Below, piece after piece: positions 3,001-46,511 of a stretch of 64,000 bases of DNA. Position 1 is the stretch's first letter. Each line of letters starts with the position of its first letter. This stretch comes from Torpedo marmorata (lineage: Eukaryota). Location of the stretch: contig OZ360225.1 of NCBI GenBank assembly GCA_977017645.1, forward strand, positions 62,434,001-62,498,000, in the 5' to 3' direction. Below the pieces are notes generated by a model. That model saw only the letters and a program-made list of their open reading frames with translations, searched no databases and was not told the DNA's origin. The position numbers were made by a program, and so were the translations under genes.

Positions 3001-6000
3001 CAGAAGACTGGTGCCAGTCGTAAATAACTGCTCAACTTAAATAGCAGAAGAAAGGGACTAATGTCTGTGTTACTTGGAATTGGAGTTTATCAGAATGTTT
3101 CCTTGCGGTATATTTTCACTGAAAATTTGTGATGAAGCGATCTCTGCTAGTTGAATAAAATTAATTGTTTTTTTTAACTCTTTATGATGCTAAGAATGCT
3201 GTGAAAAGAAGGATGAATCATCACAGACAGAACTCATGCTGGGAGACAGGAGGAGATAAATAGGGATTTCCCACAGAGTTTAACAATGCGGGAAAAATTC
3301 CAGAATGAATGGCAGATTCTCCCACCGTGGTCTTGCAATCCAAAAGACTGCCAGCAAGAGGCTGAACAGAGGAGGGCACTCTCGCTATGCTAAACCCTAT
3401 CACTGACCTGGCACATTCATTAAAATCTATTCAGTGGCCCAAGTCTCAGAATCTGTAGCATGGAACCACCTGTGGTACGGCCTGCCATAGTGTTCTATTG
3501 GAACAGTTGCATTTTCTAAGTATTACAGCATTGCATTACTCAGAGAAAACAATCAGCTCATTGTACACAAAGCACAGATGTGAATAGGGTTAAAACATTC
3601 CTGATATGATGTATTACTCTATCTTGAAAGAGTACTGTGATTTCCTTGGTCTTGAGTGAACAAAATTTCCTTTAAAGTTTAAAACGTTGATGTTACTTCC
3701 AGAATTGCTGATGAGCAGATGAGTGTTATTTTGCATAAAATACTGATTGCATAGGACATGAACTTTTAACAAGTCTAATTGACACACCTAGTGGGTGGTC
3801 TTAAAGAACTCTACCAAACGGTTGACTAAGGAACAGAGAACAAACAGGAGATTAAAAGAAGAAAACGCAGAGCCTTCTCTCACTGTGCTAATGTCTGCAA
3901 GCCAGGAACAAAACATTGAATTTAGGAAAACAACACTGTAAAATTGAAGGTTGAAGCTGACACACATCAAATTAAAAATTTTCGGTGTTCCTTTTGCAAA
4001 AGTGGCCTGATGTTAATGTGCCAACAAATGGTTTTACTTCTGCACTCAAAAATCGGAGATGGTTGACTTGCAATTGAATGAATCTGTCAAGAATCAGGTT
4101 ATTACAAAGGCAATCTTCAGCTTTCAACCATCAGCCCTGGATTGCTGCTTCCCCCAAGAAATGATCTCCAGTGGCCAACTGCCACAGAAGATTTGAGAGC
4201 TGTTCCATGCATCAGTGCAATATATCATAGTAAAAAGGAATAATCAAATGTTACATTTTAATTATTAAAAAACGAGTGACATTTAAAATTGGAGCTGTAC
4301 CTGCCTGCTTTGAGATGGTATCTGAAAAGTCCTCCTCTAAGACACAGCAAACTCAACAATGTGTTAACGTTCGTGCTGGTTTGAAGGTTCTGTCTCAATG
4401 ACGTCATGGATGGGCAACTGATAAATCTGAGACAGACACATATTCAACTTTTTCAGTGCTCTGAATCAGACCCAACAGTTCCCATTTTACAGCTTCCACA
4501 CACACAGCCATATTTCCCTTCCTTTACTGTCATGGCAAGGACCTCAACATTTGGCAGCAGGTGTGGCTTATGACACAATCTGCAACCATGACATCACATC
4601 CAGGTCATGCAGTTTGTGATACAGATTGCTCCATTGCCAGGAGGAAAGTTAATAAACAAAACAAGCAACAAAAAGAGGAAAGCCATCGATTTTGAAACTA
4701 GAGAGAGGCCTCAACAATAACACTAAAGTTTCCCTGAAGCAAACACATTTCCATGTTAAAATTGTGAAAACCAAGCAAAACAGAAATAAAGAATGTGATG
4801 TTCCATCATCACATTCATTTGAAAACTAAAGAATGGCAATCATTTCAATTTTGCTTACAACATGACAACATTTGCTTTTGGAAGGTTAAGAAACCAACCC
4901 CAGAAAAAGCATTCTCCCTACTTAAATAAAAACATTTCTCTTTATCTAGATGGGGCTGTGATAAGCTGCCACATGTAACAAACTCACTGTGATCCCTGTT
5001 TAACACTCAAATTCTGTGTTAACACTTAACAGAACAGTGGTAAGCTGTGCTGCCAAGGTCAACGGCACAGATGTACTAATTGTATTATGAGCTTGACATC
5101 TAGTGGCCACCTAAGGCAGGGCAAACCAGGCAAAGGTTAAATCAGCAAGCTCTGTCAAAGCACTTCTAACTACCCACCCTCAGGGATAACCCATCAGATG
5201 CTTGTTGGCACACCATGCAATCCCACCTTTTCAGTGAAGCCAAACAAAAGGAACTAATGTATTACACTAGACAACAATGTCGTGCTAATATAGAAAGGAA
5301 GCACAAAAGGGTCAAAACAACTCCATGGCTTTTGTTAGCGACCACAAATAAACCCAGCAACAATTTCTAACCATAATTACACCAAAATGTTTCAGTCACA
5401 ATCAGGAAATTACACAGCACAATTTTCCTCAGCAGGAACGCTCACCGCTAGTTAGACTGTCCCCTAATATTGAGGCTTGAAATATATATAAAATGGAAGA
5501 ACCATTCCAACTACAAGTTACAATATCTTTGCTTTGAAAATAATATAACATGCTTTGCACAAATGAGCCCCACCTTGGAGAATATTTTCATAATGCTGTC
5601 ATCCACATAAAACGTTCACTTCACAAGTAGCAGAATTACCAAATTCTGGTTAACATATATTGCCATCAACCAGCGCTGCTCTGATCAATGCCTAAGAAAA
5701 GGAAGATATGATCAAACCTATTTCTTGTAACAGCAACCAAGAAAATGAATAAAACTAAATCACTCAAAACAACCTCAAAATAAATGAGAAATGAATAATT
5801 TATCCTAAATACAGCATGTTATCATAAACTAGTTATTACTTAAAACCTTTTGCAGCTACCCAAATGTGGTCCAAAAAATGAAACAAAATGGCAATTACAA
5901 AATAATCTCTAAAAATATTTTACCAAAGACTTTGGAATAATAAAATCTAAAAATTGTGAAATTAACATTGTCCTTTGCATTTTATACATGTTCACTCAGA

Positions 6001-23587: not shown

Positions 23588-24299
23588 TGGTACGGTTCTG
23601 TGACGTTGAGGCAGATTCATTATACAGCTGTGTTGCATCTTGGGATGAGGTTAAAGGCCTCAGAAATGCAAATTGTAGTTAGTGTTTAGCCTGTTTGAAC
23701 TCAAAGATTGTTTTTAGTTCTGATTACTCCCCTGCATCCAAGGTTAAGATTAGTTTGTGTTCTTCACAGCACTCCAGAGATTCAGGATAGCCCTTTCAAA
23801 GAATTTGGTGAAAACCACTTTGAGTTTGATGAAAATCATCAATTCAGTAGGAAAACCCCAACATAGAACATTAATGTTTGAAGTTATAGGTATGCGGTAG
23901 GTTTGAAACAAAAACTGCATATGGTGGATAACCAAAACAAAAACAGAAGATACCAAAACACTCAGCAGATCAGCCAGCATTTGTGGAGAGAGTAGAGTCA
24001 ATATTTCAGATGACACATGAGAGCCTGCAGACGTTGCAACCTGGAGCAGAAATCGATCTGCTGGAGGGACCCAGTGGGTTGAGCAGCTTGATGAAGGCCC
24101 AAAATCAGTGGCGTATCTAAGGTATGGCAGGTATGGCACGTGCCCTGGGCGCCACTTGAAGGGGGGTGCCACTGAGCAGTTTCTATTAAAGTCAGACAAG
24201 CCATCCTCTGAGGAGCAGAATTTTTGGGCACTTGTGCCTGTGCATTGACGTTGCTGTCGCTAAATGGTTCAAACTCTGGACCATTTCTGGAGAAGTGAC

Positions 24300-24350
24300 G
24301 TGTCGGTTACCATGGGAATGGGAGTAAACACCGTGATCTCCATGGAGATG
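24300..24350 (+). promoter_or_regulatory. Motile-cilia-type promoter motifs: two X-box (RFX)-like sites flanking a forkhead site
   Basis: GTTACCATGGGAAT (24306-24319), GTAAACA (24324-24330), palindromic ATCTCCATGGAGAT (24336-24349), ~85-125 bp upstream of the DNAH10-like ATG. Confidence 0.6.
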
Positions 24351-24431
24351 GGACTCTGGCTCGTGCCGAGGGGCCGAGGCCGCCAGCTCAGCCGTTAGAG
24401 CGCGGATCCGGCGGTGAGGCCCGGTCCGGCC

Positions 24432-24632
24432 ATGTTGATCGACGACCCCCGCCTTGAGTGGCTCCGGGACCGCGTTTATGAGGTGTTTGGCCTGAGTGAG
24501 CCCGATTGTTTCGAGGAGCTGCTGAACCGCGGCGACGGGCTGCAGGAGCTTATCGTCCTGCGCTTCCTCAATGACACGCACGTCGAAGACTGCCCGTCTG
24601 TCCTGCTGGTCTTCAGGAGCAGCCGCACCGAG
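24432..24632 (+). pseudogene. DNAH10: Captured first coding exon fragment of axonemal dynein heavy chain 10 (DNAH10-like)
   Basis: GCC-ATG then MLIDDPRLEWLRDRVYEVFGLSEPDCFEELLNRGDGLQELIVLRFLNDTHVEDCPSVLLVFR aligns without gaps to the DNAH10 N-terminus as I recall it (MDDLRVLWMRDRVYAAFGITDPQLFEDLLNRDDGQGEDLILHFLNQ...PSALFIYR); no downstream dynein exons in window. Confidence 0.78.
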
Positions 24633-24759
24633 CCTCCATGGGTCAAGGCAGACTCTGTGATCTTGCTCTTCTGAGTGTAGAAAGAGAAGAAACTGAAAAA
24701 ACGGACTTTACATCATAGACCAATTTGCATCAGTGAAAGCAAGATAGGTGCAGTTATAA
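24629..24759 (+). pseudogene. hAT transposase C-terminal (dimerization-domain region) remnant
   Basis: Reads RASMGQGRLCDLALLSVEREETEKTDF/IIDQFASVKAR*VQL*, matching the (L)RSTM.Q.RL..LALLSIE...IID.FA..K.R C-terminus of hAT transposases; one frameshift and one stop. Confidence 0.8.
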
Positions 24760-26892
24760 TTATCATGTAGTGCCATAATTTGTTAATTAAAAGATTAATA
24801 AGCTTAACTTGTATTTTTGAGCTGATATTAGTTATCTAAAAGATGGGTGTCAGGTGTTTGGACAGGGGCGCAATTTCAGTGCTTGCCATAGGCGCTATTT
24901 TCCGTAGATACGCCCCTGCCCAAAATGTTGACCTTCCTTTTTCTCCCGGTGATGCTGCTCACCCACTGAATTCCTCTAACAGATTTGTTTTTTTGCGCAT
25001 TATTTCAAGTCATTGTGAGATTTGGCATGAAGATTCATGTTGTATGCTCGACACATTTTAATTCATTTGGCCTGTATAATTCAGAGGAGCAGATTTACCA
25101 AAATCATTGACTCTTGTTTAAAAACCATGTTTCTTGACTTCTGCCCTATCTTGTTTGATCTTAGATGAATGTTACTGAGACTGTGTATATATGTGAGCAT
25201 AGTTCTATGTGTGCACGTTTATGTGCACAGTTGTGTGTGTGTGTATCTTCATGTGTACAAATGTGTGCGTGCGTGTTGGTGTATGTATGTGTGTGTCTCT
25301 TTGTCTGCATGCGCGCACACACTCATGCATGCGTACATATGTTCTTACCGTAATTGACTCTGAAATACTTTGGGCATCCTGAAATACAGGCCTTTGACAT
25401 TACTTCTTTGCATTACAGTTCTATATCTGCTCAAAAGTCAGTTGTGGCAAATTACATCTTATCAGAAGGTGGATATTCCCTCAATTCATCTTAAAAATAA
25501 CTTGCTAATATTTCCTATTTTATATAACAAATGCAATATACCCGCAGGTGTTGCTTTTCAAATTCATTGCTCCTTTGGAGTCAACATTATTAAATTGATA
25601 TTCTGTCAGTCCCTATGGCAGTTGACACCTTAGACACAGCAACAGTAAGAAATCGCAAACAAAATTTGCTGCCTTAAACCTTAATAGAGGTAAAACAAAA
25701 CCACCAAGCATTTCTTGATGAATTTTGTTCAGATATTTCATTTGGAAAACATAGTGTACTGGAGTCTGAGTCTCCTGCTTTCCTGTGCTCAGAATCCGAG
25801 ATGGATTAACTGTCTTGTGACCAGGCAAAAAGCATCTATACTTTCTCCATGCTTTTCACTGAAGCAGAAGTGAAATATATTTACTCCAAAAGTAACTGCC
25901 CTTTCCCAGTGAAGCATGTCATCAGTGGAAATGTTAGTTTTGCTCCTATCAATGTTTATTTCCACATTTAATCTGATCAGTGCCCAAAATGACTGAATTC
26001 AGTACATTATGACATTCATTCAGTTCTGCTTTGTGATTAACCTGGTCAAACAATTTAATTGTCTTCTTGTTTTGTATACATTATGGACACAGCAGGCCAC
26101 AATATGGCATATATTAGGAGTGAGTTCATTTCACACCTGTAGTGCACTGTGTGCTATATTGGTATGCAGCCCGATGCAAGTGTGAGCCAGCCTCCATACT
26201 CACATCCCTCTTCTCTTTCTCCCTGATGCATTAGGCACATGGCATAGTGCAAACTCCAGGAAGTTCCTAGCCACACAGCCAACAGCCTCAGATGATACCT
26301 CTGTGGGAGGTGAAATTACAGCACTGGGCACTTGTTTGCTCTAGGTGCGTAGTCTTGTATCATAGATGTGGTGGTCACACTATTTCTTTTCTCTTTCCTT
26401 CCTTCAATCTCTCTCCCCTCACCTCAAATGTAACTCTACTGTCATTTATAAGGATACTCACTTTGGTTTCCAAAGTGAAGGAAAATACAGCAACCTGGCT
26501 TGGAAAGTTGCATAGTCTGGGTAGCAGGAAGTTTCCATTTCTGATTTAAGCCCAAAATAGTTGACTCATCCCCTCATCAATTTCAGGGGGCCGACTGCAG
26601 CCTTTGTTGATATCGTGGTGGTGGATCCTGGAACAGAAGTGGCGAGCTTCCTGTGCTTTTTCAAACAACAAATATCCAATTTGAACAGGAACATATATTG
26701 CCTGAGATCATGAAGCATCCTTTTCCTTTCATGTTCAACCATAGTCCACTGTGCGGGAAGGTCTTTATGCTGGTGTTCGCTGCTGTACAGGGATTAGCAC
26801 ATTTTTCTTCGATGCAGAGCTGAAGAATTCAAGCTCCACTCTAGAGACATAAAAAGATAAATCTAGCCTCTCACTCTGGTGCGCACAGTATG

Positions 26893-38002: not shown

Positions 38003-38117
38003 TCACTCAATAACTTCTACTGGTCCACCATTGAAAGTATCTTATCAGGGTGTGTCACTGCATGGTACGGGAACTCTCCGCCCAAGACTGCAAGAAAATG
38101 CAGAGTTGTGAATGCAT
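38003..38117 (+). mobile_element. Short Rex1/Babar RT C-terminal fragment
   Basis: NNFYWSTIESILSGCVTAWYGNS / AQDCKKMQRVVN-like motif. Confidence 0.7.
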
Positions 38118-38118
38118 T

Positions 38119-39381
38119 TGTCAATACACAAAGACCCAGCCACAAAAATTTGAGCCAACGACCAGGCGATTTGACCACATACACGTAGACCTGGTAGGCC
38201 CCCTACCCATCTCCAGAGGAGTGCGATACCTCCTCACCATGGTGGACCGTTTCACTTGCTGGCCCGAGGCAGTCCCTCTCGCGGACATCACCACCGAAGC
38301 CTGTGCCAGAGCCCTTATCACCACGTGGGTCGCACGCTTTGGGGTGCCAGCCCACATTACCTCGGACAGGGGGGCCCAATTTACATCAGCCCTGTGGACA
38401 GTCATGGCCAACTTGCTGGGCACGCAGCTCCACAAAACGACGGCTTACCACCCAGAATCCAATGGTTTATTAGAACGCTTCCACCGCCACCTAAAAGCCG
38501 CTCTAATGGCCTGCCTAGACGGTCCGAATTGGGTGGACGAGCTGCCGTGGGACCTCCTGGGGATCCGCACAGCGCCTAAAGAAGAGCTCAGTACCTCGTC
38601 GGCAGAATTGGTCTACGGAACCCTTCTGGTGGTACCAGGGGAATTCCTACCCGCCCCAAGCGGGCAAGATGCCAGCACAGCAGAGATGCTCAACAGACTC
38701 AGCGAGCAACTCGGCAACCTAGCACCGATCCCCACGTTGGAACATGGACAGTGGCCCGAGCGCATCCCCAATAACCTGCGGAGCTGTGAGTATGTGTTCA
38801 TCAGAAGAGGACCACACAGGGCACCACTACAACGGCCTTATGAAGGCCCTTTCCGGGTAGTTAAAAATAACGGCTCCACCTTCATATTGGACATTGGGGG
38901 TAAAGAAGAATGTTTCACAACAGACCGTTTAAAACCAGCACACATGGACTTAACTCAACCTATTGAACTACAGGCACCCAGACGCAGGGGCCGGCCTCCT
39001 AAACAACCGAGAGACTCTAACACCGGTTCTGGGGGGGGGGGGTTGTGTAGCGGTACCCGCTCTGGGAAAGCGAACCGGTGCCCGCAATGGTGGCAGCGCA
39101 AGTACACGTGGCAACAGCAGGGGCCGGCGCAAAATGGCACCGACCCCCCCTACTTCTTCAACCAGGAGAAGGACAGGAGACCCGGGAAAGTTCCCATTGT
39201 AATGTACAGCTCCCATTGTCATGTAGATGACAGCGATTAAGTGGCAATGGTCATGTAAACGACAGCAATTAAGCTCGCAGCCCTGCTTAAAAGCCAGGGC
39301 TGCGAGACCTGATTAAACAGTCTTGCTTGCAACCCACCGACTGTGTGTTGTTCTTCAGAATTCTGTGTAGCTCACGCTACA
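38119..39381 (+). mobile_element. Truncated Gypsy (CsRN1-like) LTR retrotransposon: integrase, PPT and 3' LTR
   Basis: Open integrase core HIHVDLVGP...TSDRGAQF...NGLLERFHR plus GPY/F module (YEGPFRVV); poly-G PPT 39031-39042; LTR 39046-39381 bounded by TGTAGCG...CGCTACA. Confidence 0.9.
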
Positions 39382-40840: not shown

Positions 40841-42739
40841 GGACTTTGGTTGACATACAGGAATGTGCTTGATCTGACCAGTCGCTTGCACTCAGCCTCC
40901 ACCCTAACCCTTTACTAACCTCTTATGGGATCAGAATACAGGAGGGCTCTATTCCGCAGCCCCACTGCCAGGTGGAGCTGCTTGAGAGCGATGACCAGTC
41001 CTCAGGTGTTGGAGCACAAGCCTTCCCACAAGGTCCTTCTCACAGCACTTTCCCTGTTTTTAAAAAGCTCTGATGCATGAAAAAAACATTTTAAAATAGT
41101 TTAACTGGATTAAAATAATTAAAAAGATAAAATACAGTAGATTTAGCTAAAATATATTAAATTACTGCATATTAATTAAAGATATAGATGTAAAGTGAAA
41201 TAAATAAAATGAGACAGAAAATGTTCACCTGAAACACCAATAATTGGGATTGGTGATCCCAATTAAAAATGATTGGGGTCAGTATTTGTAGCCTGGCAGA
41301 AAGCAGTGAAGGATTGAAACAGGAAGATCCATCCCATCCCTGACATCTACACTCTAGTGCAGAGAATGTGAAATTCAAAAGTCAAAGACGATGAACAGTG
41401 GGCAGAAGTATCTGCTGTACCAACTGGTGCTGGATTTGACCCAAAGCTCTAACCTGATATGAAGTGTCTCCAGCTTTCCCTTGGCATTGCATTGAAGGGA
41501 ATTCTTGCCTACAAGCTTGTCTTTCAGTTGAGAGTTGGACTCAAACTACTTAATGCCCATGTACAAAGCTGACAAAAGTTAGGAAAAAAAACTTTTAAAA
41601 ATGCCAAGGTTATGGAAAAGAGGTCAGAATGAAGTGGAAGGAAATGCAGGAGGAATATAATTGTCAGTGCAGTCTTAACCACTTGTGCTAAGTTGGTTTC
41701 ACCCATGAGAATCATTTCCAAAAACATTCTGCCTTCCATAAGACAGTTGAAAATAATACCTAAATTTCCTACAAAGAGTAAAAGGGGAAAGTAATAGGTT
41801 GATCAAGCTTCTAAAGTGCTGACTTATGCTTCTGACAATTAAAACTCCACATTTCGAATGCAGATTCAAGTTATAAAACTGAAATAGGAAGTAGTTTTTT
41901 TTTAAAAATGTAGTAGTTTTTTCCATATGCATTTTATTGAATGCTTACATTTCCACTGGAAGTGGTGATTGGAGTATCTTCTCTAGGTCTCTCCCCAATC
42001 ATTCAGCTGTAGTTGAGGAGGATAAACTCTCTATGTGGAGTTACCCCTGAGGGAATGGAGTGTCAGTATGAGCCTCTTCTTAAGTGAGGATACAATATTT
42101 CTCTGTGCTGTTGGTACAACCAGATGGCACAGGAAGTTGGGAAAATTGTACTGAGCAGTTGGACCTCAAATGAGGCAGTTGCCTACCTGATTTTTTCAAA
42201 TACCCCTGCTGTCAGTCATGTGGACGGGGACAATTAGAGGCTCAAATTGCCACCCTATCCAGTAGAAATGGGGAAGCATGCCTAAATTCAATGAACTAAA
42301 AATAAGGCAGTAAGTACTTTGTTAAGACTATGAGAAGAAATGTGCAATTGTAGCCGACTGCTACGAAGAAACACACAACCGCAGTGTGGAAGGTTAAGCT
42401 CTCTTCTTTATTGAGGTTGGAAATGCTTCTTTTATACAGTTGGAGTTCCCGCCGTTTGGTTGATTGGTTGACATCAGCCGCATGAATAACAATAGCGGGC
42501 GGGAACGTTCTTGCATATGAATACCCTTCTTCCCCAGCCTGGTATTGATCTGTTAGCTGGGCAGCTTGGCCAGCACCATTTTAGCGCTGCTGGTCTTGTA
42601 CTGCTCCAGCTTTCAACCGCGCCGGTTCACTATGCTAAGGGTCGCGTTACATTGTGTTATGCCGCTGTTTATTACCGCGCACGCCGAGCGATGTGCCGGC
42701 TCGATCTCCGCGGTGGCGGACTGCCACATGACCCCCACC

Positions 42740-45700
42740 CCTCCCAGAACTGGCGCTACAGTTCATAGTGTCCGTGGATGCAGTCCCCAATGTCTTTGGT
42801 GGTCTGCCTCTGCGCCGAGGTGCTGGCGTCTCCATGGGTTGTGTCAGGTACGTGTGTGCCGGCTTGAGCCTGTCTGCAGTGAAGACCTCTGGTTTGCCAC
42901 CGATGTCCAGTTCGAAGGTGGCCCCGTTGTTCCGGATGACATGGAATGGGCCTTCGTAGGGCTTCTGTAGCGGTGGTTGGCGTGGCCCTCTGCGTACGAA
43001 CACATACTCACAGTTTTGGAGTTCTTTAGGGATGTTGAACTTGGCTTGCCCGTGTCTGGAGGGTGGGATCGGAGCCAGGTTACTGACCTTTTCCTGCAAC
43101 CTGTCCAGGAAGGTGGTTGTATCCTCCTGTTGACCTCTGGCCAGTGGGACGAAATCCCTGGAGATCATGAGTGGAGCTCCGTAGACGAGCTCGGCGGAGG
43201 ATGTGTGGAGGTCTTCCTTCGGGGCTGTACGAATCCCCAGCAGTGCCCATGGCAGTTTGTCAACCCAGTTGGGGCCCTTGAGTCTGGTCATAAGGGCGGC
43301 CTTGAGGTGCCTGTGGAAGCGCTCAACCAGCCCATTAGACTGCGGGTGGTATGCTGTCGTGTGGTGTAGCTGAGCGCCCCACAGGTTGGCAACGTAGGTC
43401 CACAGGCTGGAGGTAAATTGTGCGCCTCTGTCGGAGGTTATGTGGCGCGGTAGCCCGAACCTTGCTACCCAGGACGAGACGAGTGCCTTGGCGCAGGACC
43501 TGCTGGATGTGTCGGCCAGGGGGATTGCTTCTGGCCACCGGGTGAAACGGTCGACCACTGTGAACAGGTAGCGGAAACCCTGTGAAACTGGTAAGGGTCC
43601 CACTCTGTCCACGTGAATGTGGTCAAACCTTCGCTCCGTTGGCTCGAAAGGCTGTGGGGGGACCTTGGTGTGCCGCTGTACCTTGCCTGTTTGGCACTGT
43701 GTGCATGCCTTGGCCCACCTGCTGACTTGTTTCTGCAATCCATGCCATGCGTACTTGCTGGCCACCAACCGGACCGTGGTCCTGATTGATGGATGTGCCA
43801 GCCCGTGGATGGAGTCGAAAACTCGTCGCCTCCATGCCGACGAGTCGAACCTGCCTGGTGGCCACGTCGCACAGGAGGGTAGTGTTACCTGTGCCGACTG
43901 GTATGCCCTGAAGCTGCAGCCCCGTGACGGCGGTCCTGTACTGAGGCATCTCGTCGTCCTCCTGCTGTGCCTCCGCCAGTGCCACGAAATCCAGTCCGTT
44001 AGCCAGAGAGTGGATGCTCTGTCTCGACAAGGCATCCGCGACCATGTTGTCTTTTCCCGAGATGTGCCTTACGTCGGTGGTGTACTCCAAGACGTAAGAC
44101 AAGTGTCTCTGCTGGCGGGCTGACCAGGGATCGGAGATCTTGGCCAGGGCGAACGTCAGTGGCTTGTGGTCCGTGATAGCCGTGAAAGCCCTTCCCTCTA
44201 GGAAGTACCGGAAGTGGCGGATGGCTAAGTACAGTGCCAGTAGCTCTCTGTCGAAAACACTCTACTTTAGCTCAGGGGGCCGCAGATGTTTGCTGAAGAA
44301 AGCTAGTGGACGCCAACTTCCTTCTATCTGCTGCTCCAGAACTCCACCAATCGCTGTTCCTGAGGCATCGACCGTGAGAGCTGTGGGTGCGTCTGACCTG
44401 GGGTGGGCCAGGAGTGCGGCATTAGCCAGGGCTTCCTTCGCTTCCACGAACGCTCGTGCGGAGTCATCGTCCCAGGTCAAGTCCTTCGCCTTGCCGGTCA
44501 TCAGGGTGAAGAGTGGGCGCATGGTTCGAGCAGCTGCGGGGATGAATCTGCGATAAATGTTGACCATCCCCATGAACTCCTGCAGTCCTTTGGTCGTACT
44601 GGGCCTCGGGAAGTTGCGAATAGCCTCCACCTTGCTGGGTAGTGGCGTGGCCCCGCATTTGGTAATCCTGTGGTCCAGGAAGTCAATTGTGCTCAGCCCG
44701 AACTGGCATTTAGCCAGGTTGATTGTAAGGCCGAACTCATGTAGGCGACTGTACAGGCTTCGGAGGTGTTGTAGATGTTCCTGCCGGGTACTGCTCGCCA
44801 CCAGGATATCATCTAAGTAGACGAAGGTGCTGTCCAGGTCTCGGCCCACCGCGTCCATCAGTCGCTGGAAGGTCTGTGCCACATTCTTGAGCCCGAATGG
44901 CATCCTCAGGAACTCAAACAGCCCGAATGGAGTGATGATGGCCGTCTTGGGGATGTCGTCAGGGTGCACCGCGATTTGGTGGTACCTTCGCACCAAGTCC
45001 ACTTTGGAGAAGATCGTCGCTCCGTGCAGGTTTGCCGCAAAGTCCTGGATATGCGGCATGGGGTAACGATCTGGAGTGGTGGCCTCGTTAAGCCGGCGGT
45101 AGTCGCCGCATGGTCTCCAGCCCCCAGATGCTTTGGGCACCATGTGCAGAGGAGAAGCCCATGGACTGTCCGACCACCGAATGATGCCTAACTCCTCGAG
45201 CTTGTGGAACTCCTCCTTGGCCAGTTGAAGCTTCTCCGGGGGAAGTCGTCTTGCCCTTGCGTGGAGAGGTGGACCCTTGGTAAGGATGTGATGCCTGAAG
45301 CCGTGTCGGGGCACCTCCACCATGAACTGAGGGGCAAGGATTGCTGGGAACTCAGCCAGCACTTTGGAGAACTCATCGTCCAAGCTGTGAACGGAGTCCA
45401 GGTGCAGTGCCGGGAGCCTGGTGCCCCTCAGTGCGACGGTTTGGAACGTTTCGGCGTGCACAAGTCTCTTGCCCTTGAGGTCCACTAGGAGGCTGTGGGC
45501 CCGCAGGAAGTCCGCTCCGAGGAGTGGCTGTTCCACTGCGGCCAGCGTGAACTCCCACAAGAAGTAACTGCCTCCGAACTGCAGCTCGGCCCTACGTTTG
45601 CCATAGGTCCGTATGCTGCTGTTGTTGGCAGCCCTCAACGTGGGGCCCACTTGCCTGCATCTGGTGTCCAAACCTGTCGGGGGCATCACGCTGACCTCCG

Positions 45701-45810
45701 CTACTGTATCCACCAAGAATCGTCTACTGGAAAGGCGATCCCATACATACAGGAGGCTCTCTCGATGGCCAGCCGCCGTGGCCATCAGTGACGGCTGGCC
45801 TTGTCGTTTC
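42740..45810 (-). pseudogene. pol: Gypsy pol (PR, RT, RNase H, IN), with a stop at ~44262 and a frameshift near 43850
   Basis: [10 protein letters not shown] protease, [17 protein letters not shown] RNase H, HGLAHP...CTQCQ zinc finger, D-D-E core and GPF module. Confidence 0.9.
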
Positions 45811-46472
45811 CCTGGAACTTGCAGGGCGACCACCATCGGTGGGCCTCGGAGCCCCATCTTTGGTGGTAGAAGCACCATCTCTCTTTGGACTCGTCCCTGC
45901 CTCTTGCCTGCCACTCCTTTCCAGGGCCTGCCTTGGTCTGGTTGCGAGACTTCGTGACGAGCCCCACGGTAGCCGAGCACTTCTGTTTGTGCTTCCACAG
46001 AATATCTGCCCGTGCTGCGACTATCCGGGGGCTGCTGAAATCCGCGTCAGCTAGGAGCAGTTGGATGTCCTCGGGCAGCTGCTCCAAGAACGCCTGTTCG
46101 AACGGAGGGCTTGTGGTTTCGCAGGAGGGCTAGCATCTCGTTCATGAGCGCTGACGGGAATCTGTCCCCTAGCCCATTCAGGTGGAGCAGCCGTGCCCCT
46201 CTTTCTCGCCGCGAGAGCCCGAAGGTCTCAGTCAATAGCTCTTTGAAGGCAGTGTAAGTGCCTTCCGATGGTGGCCTCTGGGTGAAGTTGACCACCCTGT
46301 CTGCAGTCTCTGGATCCAGGGCGCTGACCACATGGTAGTACCGTGTGGTCTCAGCTGTGATGCCCTGAATCTGGAACTGAGCCTCAGCCTGGTCGAACCA
46401 CACGCCAGGTCGAACTGTCCAGAAGGTCGGGAGCTTGAGGCCGACTGCGCTGATCGCTGCTTCGCTATCCAT
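45785..46472 (-). pseudogene. gag: Gypsy gag (frameshifted near 46100)
   Basis: MDSEAAISAVGLKLPTFWTVRPGVWFDQAEAQF...; continues in ORF 45785-46087 with degenerate CHCC-type knuckle [18 protein letters not shown]. Confidence 0.85.
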
Positions 46473-46497
46473 CGCTGGGTTTAGATGCCGTCTAAAC

Positions 46498-46511
46498 CGT
46501 CGGGGTCACCA
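46498..46511 (-). promoter_or_regulatory. Primer-binding site complementary to tRNA-Trp
   Basis: Minus strand TGGTGACCCCGACG, 2 nt after the 5' LTR; complementary to the tRNA-Trp 3' end. Confidence 0.85.

Follow-up and report, generated by a model that had tools for sequence, protein, structure and literature searches.

A Pack-type hAT transposon bearing the 5' end of DNAH10, and its multicopy family, in the genome of Torpedo marmorata

The stretch of Torpedo marmorata DNA analysed here (hereafter the window) is 64,000 nucleotides long and corresponds to positions 62,434,001 to 62,498,000 of contig OZ360225.1 (assembly GCA_977017645.1). It contains a hAT transposon of the Pack type, the ends of which enclose the 5' end of the axonemal dynein heavy chain gene DNAH10 (Table 1). 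The element occupies 813 bp (24106-24918) and is bordered on each side by CCCAAAAT. An earlier note, prepared from the sequence alone, had described an element of this size with a perfect 8-bp target-site duplication (TSD), and both features are borne out. The inverted ends reported in that note are also real; however, the terminal inverted repeats (TIRs), which form the inverted-repeat pair I3 with 88% complementarity, are 17 bp in length, and the 14 bp originally given represent a stretch with one mismatch.

Between its two hAT arms, the element carries a cargo of 415-421 bp without counterpart in full-length hAT copies, composed of 216 bp located 5' of an ATG and 66 codons of DNAH10 exon 1. 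This length lies within the range of 100-5000 bp of internal sequence not derived from a transposable element (TE) that is used to delimit Pack-TIR elements. From the ATG at 24432, 67 stop-free codons extend to 24632, as was proposed earlier for a reading frame with a Kozak ATG, and the frame continues to 80 aa before a TGA at 24672-24674; only 66 of the 67 codons are DNAH10, as codon 67 (GAG) is made up of one shared G and hAT bases. The right arm does contain the last ~43 transposase codons that had been recognised, the same tail closing the frame of a longer hAT copy (L157) which matches Dimer_Tnp_hAT. In the window copy this tail carries a 4-bp deletion, and it is unbroken in other copies (for example L002). 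Finally, the CpG dinucleotides that had been described as retained are present at 31 of 46 cargo positions in the window copy, compared with 39 of 46 in the parental gene.

Table 1. Features of the Pack-type hAT element and its borders (positions in the window)
Feature	Position	Strand	Remarks
Left 8-bp target-site duplication	24098..24105	no strand	CCCAAAAT
hAT left arm	24106..24208	+	17-bp TIR at 24106-24122; like the first ~103 bp of full-length L154/L155/L157
Junction base T	24209	+	hAT has G, donor has A; the next GA is readable as either side
First 32 bp of cargo	24210..24241	+	found in copy A, a decayed exon 1 further upstream (C11:255,974,585)
DNAH10 proximal promoter / 5' untranslated region (UTR)	24242..24431	+	common to functional exon 1 (copy B, from C11:255,977,740) and copy A
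X-box-like site	24306..24319	+	window copy with an extra C>T
DNAH10 exon-1 coding part	24432..24630	+	66 codons and one base; stops 26 bp short of the parent's splice donor
Chimeric 80-aa open reading frame (ORF)	24432..24674	+	66 aa of DNAH10 and 14 aa of out-of-frame hAT arm
hAT right arm	24630..24918	+	last ~43 transposase codons, 3' UTR and right TIR at 24902-24918
Right 8-bp target-site duplication	24919..24926	no strand	CCCAAAAT

The identity of the cargo, for which a protein comparison had been suggested, is established by the peptide of its first 67 codons, which matches PDB chains of Dynein axonemal heavy chain 10 (residues 3-63, E=1.7e-14). Pfam, which has no family for this DNAH10 N-terminus, returned none for the cargo peptide or the short transposase tail (three proteins); a word-indexed protein search produced 28 candidates, none of them significant. 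A full HMMER protein search returned 91 matches at E<=0.001, from which a protein of 4540 aa (P0028) was used; a repeat protein (P0003) was set aside as a spurious match.

The parental locus, which the earlier note had hoped to see located, lies on contig C11. It was found through DHC_N1 matches that locate dynein genes, and is absent from the 40 scored rows of a DNA search with the cargo alone. An exon at C11:256,034,474 is that of DNAH10 (E=7e-29), and BLAST analysis of the 120 kb upstream of it revealed two cargo-like stretches, termed copies A and B. Copy B (C11:255,977,740-255,978,115) is the functional exon 1: it has an open frame (E=8.6e-17 to DNAH10 residues 1-71, over a span of 73 residues) with a GT donor behind it, and is followed by further DNAH10 exons in order across 58 kb. 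Copy B has no flanking hAT arms, which places the parental copy outside the same TE. It differs from the column majority of the Pack copies at 17 of 321 columns, and single Pack copies are 82-88% identical to it in gapped BLAST alignments, below the 90% cut-off that Tan et al. 2021 applied to 'young' cases (PMC8277862).

Copy A (C11:255,974,585-255,974,962) is located 3.1 kb upstream of the functional exon and is decayed. It ends 22 bp before the 3' end of the cargo and continues into an intronless, broken and retrocopy-like remnant of a coiled-coil ORF, which may be MIPOL1-like (copy A and remnant together C11:255,974,585-255,976,200; L087:9585-10000 and L086:1-1200). The cargo's initial 32 bp have an exact match in copy A and in no other part of the 130 kb surrounding the 5' end of DNAH10, and the donor locus must therefore have been rearranged inside the captured stretch. 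In copy B their place is taken by a GC-rich minisatellite, which also follows exon 1 (L086:2200-2740 and 3160-3940); with the minisatellite on both flanks, ~180 bp of original upstream sequence are left before the DNAH10 ATG. The simplest reading is a tandem duplication with one end in the captured stretch, 32 bp from its start, and the other in the minisatellite of intron 1, copy A keeping the old flank and copy B the function. Another CpG-rich promoter-like stretch (L086:1800-2040), with GCGCATGCGC repeats, AACATGGCGGCGG and a possible GT donor, was also observed between copy A and the functional exon. Copy A was considered as a stripped Pack copy and rejected, as it lacks hAT arms and has the parent's state at all seven Pack-only sites. 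Elsewhere in the genome, one set of DHC_N1 exons of an axonemal dynein heavy chain is present on C53 in five or more near-identical copies (17.69 Mb and 57.35-57.66 Mb; L036-L040), which suggests a multi-copy segmental duplication.

The hAT partner of the element is represented by relatives with the same ends and no cargo, which were obtained by searching with the arms (L154, 3236 bp; L155, 2961 bp, with the perfect TSD AGCCTAAA; L157, 2368 bp) and to which two other long copies can be added (L238 and L239). L154 matches DUF4371 (E=3.7e-18) and L157 Dimer_Tnp_hAT (E=4.5e-11) in Pfam. The Pack element retains bases 1-103 and 2936-3236 of L154, with ~2.83 kb replaced. Furthermore, the right arms of 61 Pack copies and those of 12 cargo-less copies have column majorities that are identical at 288 of 288 columns; the cargo-less arms diverge by 1.8% versus 2.7% for the Pack arms, a comparison that is biased, as the cargo-less set was picked by similarity. 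The autonomous partner that the earlier note had expected is represented by full-length relatives with the same arms, but all five long copies read are decayed, none having an unbroken transposase frame. Of 169 exact matches to the left arm, the first 30 comprise nine elements with DNAH10 cargo, 11 with another GC-rich insert, and ten plain hAT copies or deletion derivatives.

The window element is one of many. When the 6.2-Gb genome was searched with it, 40 of 2630 candidates were scored, and the 39 besides the window copy showed 88-91% identity across nearly the full length; the cargo alone gave 166 first-look candidates. The chimeric left junction (20-mer, at most one mismatch) was matched 133 times and the chimeric right junction (26-mer, CpG sites degenerate, at most one mismatch) 112 times, with no match for either reversed control. 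These copy counts are lower bounds; since the left-junction test was passed by 61 of 66 examined copies, the 133 matches correspond to ~140-150 copies, which is a fair estimate of the family size.

The 66 copies examined are distinct and near-full, and were drawn from the loci obtained with the whole element, the cargo and each arm as queries; all align from query position 60 or earlier to 700 or later, truncated copies being excluded. The left and the right junction are each kept within three mismatches in 64 of them, and both TIRs (<=3 mismatches) are present in 48. The TSDs of these 48 are perfect in 32 cases, while seven have one mismatch, one has two and eight have three or more; among the 39 good TSDs, 38 are distinct. 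Common junctions combined with distinct TSDs imply that a single founder transposed many times, and the multicopy family that the earlier note had envisaged is indeed present. One Pack copy carries in its right arm a GC-rich insertion of 240 bp with terminal repeats of its own (L106:2234-2474). No clean empty site was found among the fetched loci. A joint in sequencing run X1 skips 24087-24935; the flank is itself a repeat, so that other copies are a possible source. Indeed, the window insertion sits mid-way in an older short repeat with high contig depth (inverted arms 24056-24079 and 24961-24984; pair I1).

The 66 copies lie 2.4-5.8% from their column majority, with a mean of 4.05% (2.4% at non-CpG and 13.3% at CpG sites), the window copy being ordinary at 4.1%. 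The median pairwise distance of 7.4%, about twice the mean distance to the majority, counts for one burst. In two closer pairs (0.9% and 1.9%) the members have a flank or the TSD in common, which suggests segmental duplication; the pair that follows is 4.3% apart. The suggestion that the insertion is young and the family active does not hold: no copy of the 66 is nearer than 2.4% to the majority, the closest independent pair differs by 4.3%, and the long hAT copies have no unbroken frame, in the subset of copies that was read. Across the 66 codons, 432 amino-acid-changing, 256 silent and three nonsense changes were counted, compared with 442, 242 and 6.7 expected from the mutation classes, which gives an omega of ~0.92 for the captured frame. 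Insertions and deletions in the ORF keep the frame in only four of 19 cases, and the 80-aa ORF is intact in 38 of the 66 copies. No selection on the ORF or on the X-box-like site was detected among these copies; the family has undergone neutral decay after one finished burst, and its members are likely inert relics.

Other samples in the sequencing archive provide a further view of the age of the family. Of 21 listed runs, representing seven organism labels and a metagenome label, 20 hold part of a typical copy, which the hAT arms alone could explain; the contigs of four runs (X1, X3, X15 and X16) were compared in detail, the shares in X17-X20 being small. In run X1 (organism A), a contig that spans 23600-24155 crosses the border between flank and TIR with nine differences and a 21-bp gap, which indicates that the window insertion is shared with a diverged individual or species. 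Run X3 (organism C) lacks the unique flank and has contigs over both chimeric junctions, so that the family is older than the split from organism C.

At the right junction, the hAT sequence TATTTGA-G-AGCCTCC and the parental CCGCACC-G-GGGTGG combine in the element as CCGCACC-G-AGCCTCC, with one shared G. At the left junction, hAT has CATCCTC-G-GATAG, the donor as represented by copy A has AGGA-A-GAGGAGC and the element has CATCCTC-T-GAGGAGC, with at most GA shared. The microhomology of CGAG proposed earlier is not upheld, as the parent reads ACC-GGG and full-length hAT reads TTG-AGA-GCC (in four of five copies shown, the fifth having a point change), leaving the G alone in common. In the animal survey, microhomology of 1-36 bp (median 2) is reported at one or both breakpoints in 67.6% of Pack-TIRs (Tan et al. 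2021, PMC8277862). The junction homology seen here is thus typical of such elements but does not by itself prove template switching.

Taken together, these data lead us to conclude with considerable confidence that DNAH10 was captured once, in a non-autonomous hAT element, which subsequently spread by transposition to 133 sites or more, where its copies decayed without detectable selection. In a single event, 415 bp from the DNAH10 promoter region and first exon took the place of the hAT interior; template switching while a broken hAT was being repaired or replicated is the likely route. We infer that the hAT took up genomic DNA from the unmethylated CpG-island promoter as it stood ancestrally, no later than about the time of the local duplication, and that the switch used almost no homology (1 bp at the right junction; on the left no more than 2 bp, preceded by one unassigned base). 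Transposase would have been provided in trans by full-length partners during a single burst, now ended, which is probably older than the divergence from one or more of the other organisms in the sequencing archive. Several observations weigh against parts of this scenario. The 130 kb around the donor (120 kb of them covered by BLAST) revealed no empty or broken hAT, so that gap filling and fork switching are indistinguishable, and one base of microhomology is what chance would provide. Furthermore, the start of the cargo (32 bp) matches decayed copy A rather than the functional exon, which bears on the exact donor; the cargo has no intron, which makes an RNA intermediate formally possible; and the set of 66 copies stems from best-match searches and is biased to less decayed copies.

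As regards the donor, it is possible, though we regard it as the less likely case, that copy A itself, a local and already redundant duplicate, was captured soon after it arose, rather than the working DNAH10 promoter. The 32 bp found in copy A alone favour this, as does the comparison over 328 columns, in which the Pack majority sides with A against B at 12 sites (the B-only differences). Present-day A, however, does not reach the 3' end of the cargo, stopping 22 bp before it, and its 25 private changes, 16 of them at CpG, together with its retention of only 26 of the 44 CpGs of the Pack majority, indicate that the capture predates most of its decay. Moreover, only seven sites set the Pack majority apart from A and B jointly, and the non-CpG distances to that majority (11/224 for A and 10/229 for B, the Pack copies averaging 2.5%) fit a near-simultaneous three-way split. 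In this unrooted comparison, capture and duplication may be linked events. A passage through RNA, with a 5' transcript or cDNA of DNAH10 serving as repair template, or with the capture of a chimeric retrocopy made by a long interspersed nuclear element (LINE), appears very unlikely to us. Its appeal lies in the sense-oriented, intronless cargo that ends inside exon 1, and in copy A leading straight into an intronless, decayed and retrocopy-like ORF; yet neither a poly(A) tract, an internal TSD nor an exon-exon junction is present, ~2.8 kb of hAT were lost rather than interrupted, and the cargo extends 216 bp 5' of the ATG with its X-box-like site, where retrocopies usually retain 3' and not 5' ends. 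The genomic, non-processed capture proposed in the earlier note is likely, with the reservation that the cargo, which comprises upstream DNA and exon 1 up to a point 26 bp short of the splice donor, contains neither an intron nor an exon-exon junction. That the segment is normal hAT interior, or an assembly chimera, can be dismissed with near certainty: full-length hAT copies lack it and it maps to DNAH10 exon 1, while each junction recurs more than 100 times and is seen in contigs of an independent run.

The single capture followed by neutral decay also has to be set against the idea that the copies spread or persist by function, whether they serve ciliated or germ cells as promoters driven by RFX or yield small RNAs, or a short peptide of DNAH10, by which the parent is regulated. 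The sequence GTTACCATGGGAAC, 131 bp upstream of the ATG, is shared by the parent and 35 of the 66 copies, 13 more differing by a final C>T of CpG type. It represents a putative X-box, with one mismatch to the RFX consensus GTNRCC(N0-3)RGYAAC in the parent and the majority and two in the window copy, this consensus being given in PMC5752003; X-boxes are described in PMC5838959 as clustering within 500 bp of start sites. This candidate X-box is best taken as a lead, not a result: one-mismatch X-boxes are common by chance (~4.75 per 64 kb), and its rate of non-CpG change (14/844, 1.66%) differs little, and on few counts, from the 2.3-3.0% found elsewhere. The exact X-box-like sites and intact 80-aa ORFs speak for a functional role, as does a contig over the left junction in run X15 (organism F, RNA by guess), and bat Helitrons bearing promoters reach higher copy numbers (PMC4224331). 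Conversely, omega is ~0.92, X15 is possibly DNA and has no listed piece over the right junction, and run X16 (organism D, RNA by guess) holds hAT arms only. On balance, a functional explanation is highly improbable.

The other large subfamily recovered with the hAT arms has 130 bp of left and 34 bp of right arm around a different, GC-rich and promoter-like insert, for which 2004 first-look candidates exist in any frame. The TIR of another hAT forms the end of this insert, which is present in the short copies of that hAT and absent from a 2653-bp long copy of it, and longer versions are found in a third frame, which we take to be hAT-like, and inside another, presumably Tigger-like. The module occurs in at least four TIR frames (L120, L121, L159-L178, L199-L227; L181, L184, L188; L241, L243, L253, L259) and has motifs that resemble YY1 and BANP sites. 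Genome searches did not find a single-copy parent for it; it may be a serially re-captured host promoter or the 5' region of an unseen autonomous element. A broader, and in our view unlikely, proposition is that the DNA transposons of this lineage repeatedly capture and amplify CpG-island promoter modules: one hAT would have dispersed the promoter of a ciliary gene, with its RFX-type site and start codon, in ~140 copies, and the second module would have moved through at least four TIR frames, the last of them in this same hAT. Were this true, and were some copies still to fire in ciliated cells or testis, Pack-hATs would offer vertebrates a way of wiring new genes into the RFX programme, and a germline-active cargo would explain why cargo-bearing subfamilies (20 of the 30 family members sampled) outnumber cargo-less ones.

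Elsewhere in the window, split Gag-, protease/reverse transcriptase- and integrase-like frames mark a long terminal repeat (LTR) retroelement at 42647-46505 on the minus strand, presumably Gypsy-like, and a second integrase fragment lies at 38035-39240 on the plus strand.

With the parent, its sibling duplicate, the hAT partner and both junctions known, the family provides a clean case for models of capture, and its ~140 copies amount to natural replicates of one ciliary promoter across chromatin settings. In practical terms, these copies will cause reads to be mis-mapped and spurious gene models of the DNAH10 5' end to be predicted. No prior description of a DNAH10 Pack-hAT family was found in the literature, Repbase/Dfam and most subscription journals being outside the scope of that search, and an unlabelled repeat-library entry is possible.

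The family can be placed among the Pack-TIRs, a known kind of element, and its scale is unusual for a vertebrate TIR transposon. Tan et al. 2021 report 370 Pack-TIRs in 100 animals, of which 208 are hAT, with four multicopy families (1.4%); the elephant shark, the lone cartilaginous fish found when its supplement was searched, has none (PMC8277862). The survey pipeline, with its unique best parent match and annotated TE flanks, may under-report high-copy cases. In that survey, animal Pack-TIRs are described as almost all single-copy repair accidents, whereas here a promoter and coding exon have been amplified more than 100-fold.

The family resembles Pack-hAT-N8_XT of Xenopus tropicalis, which carries the CAPSL 5' UTR, in its hAT ends, its GC-rich 5' fragment of a few hundred bp, the location of its parent on another chromosome, its distinct TSDs and its short or absent microhomology. 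The two worked frog examples number three (CAPSL) and five copies, compared with at least 133 (~25-45x) here, where the cargo also has 66 coding codons (PMC8277862). The multicopy Ssk-FB4 of Drosophila is likewise a Pack-TIR with coding cargo that is attributed to a template switch followed by transposition (FoSTeST), but it holds nearly a whole gene and is polymorphic, translated and under positive selection, in contrast to the neutral 66-codon fragment of DNAH10 (PMC8277862). A further comparison is offered by the Pack-TYPE elements of plants (PMC8903248), namely Pack-MULE, Pack-CACTA and Pack-hAT. These too are non-autonomous TIR elements that bear GC-rich 5' gene fragments and continue to transpose. 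In the present case the host is an animal and the DNAH10 subfamily has one cargo from one gene, with no multi-gene shuffling. The nearest vertebrate parallel in scale, by another mechanism, is a bat Helitron with the NUBPL promoter and first exon, present in about a thousand copies; HelibatN3 and other promoter-carrying bat Helitrons similarly hold promoter, 5' UTR and first exon at high copy with a 5' bias (Thomas et al. 2014, PMC4224331). Unlike these rolling-circle elements, which lack TIRs and TSDs and reach ~1000 copies, the DNAH10 family is a cut-and-paste hAT with an intronless cargo and ~140 copies. A vertebrate cut-and-paste element can, it appears, amplify its cargo as plant Pack elements and bat Helitrons do.

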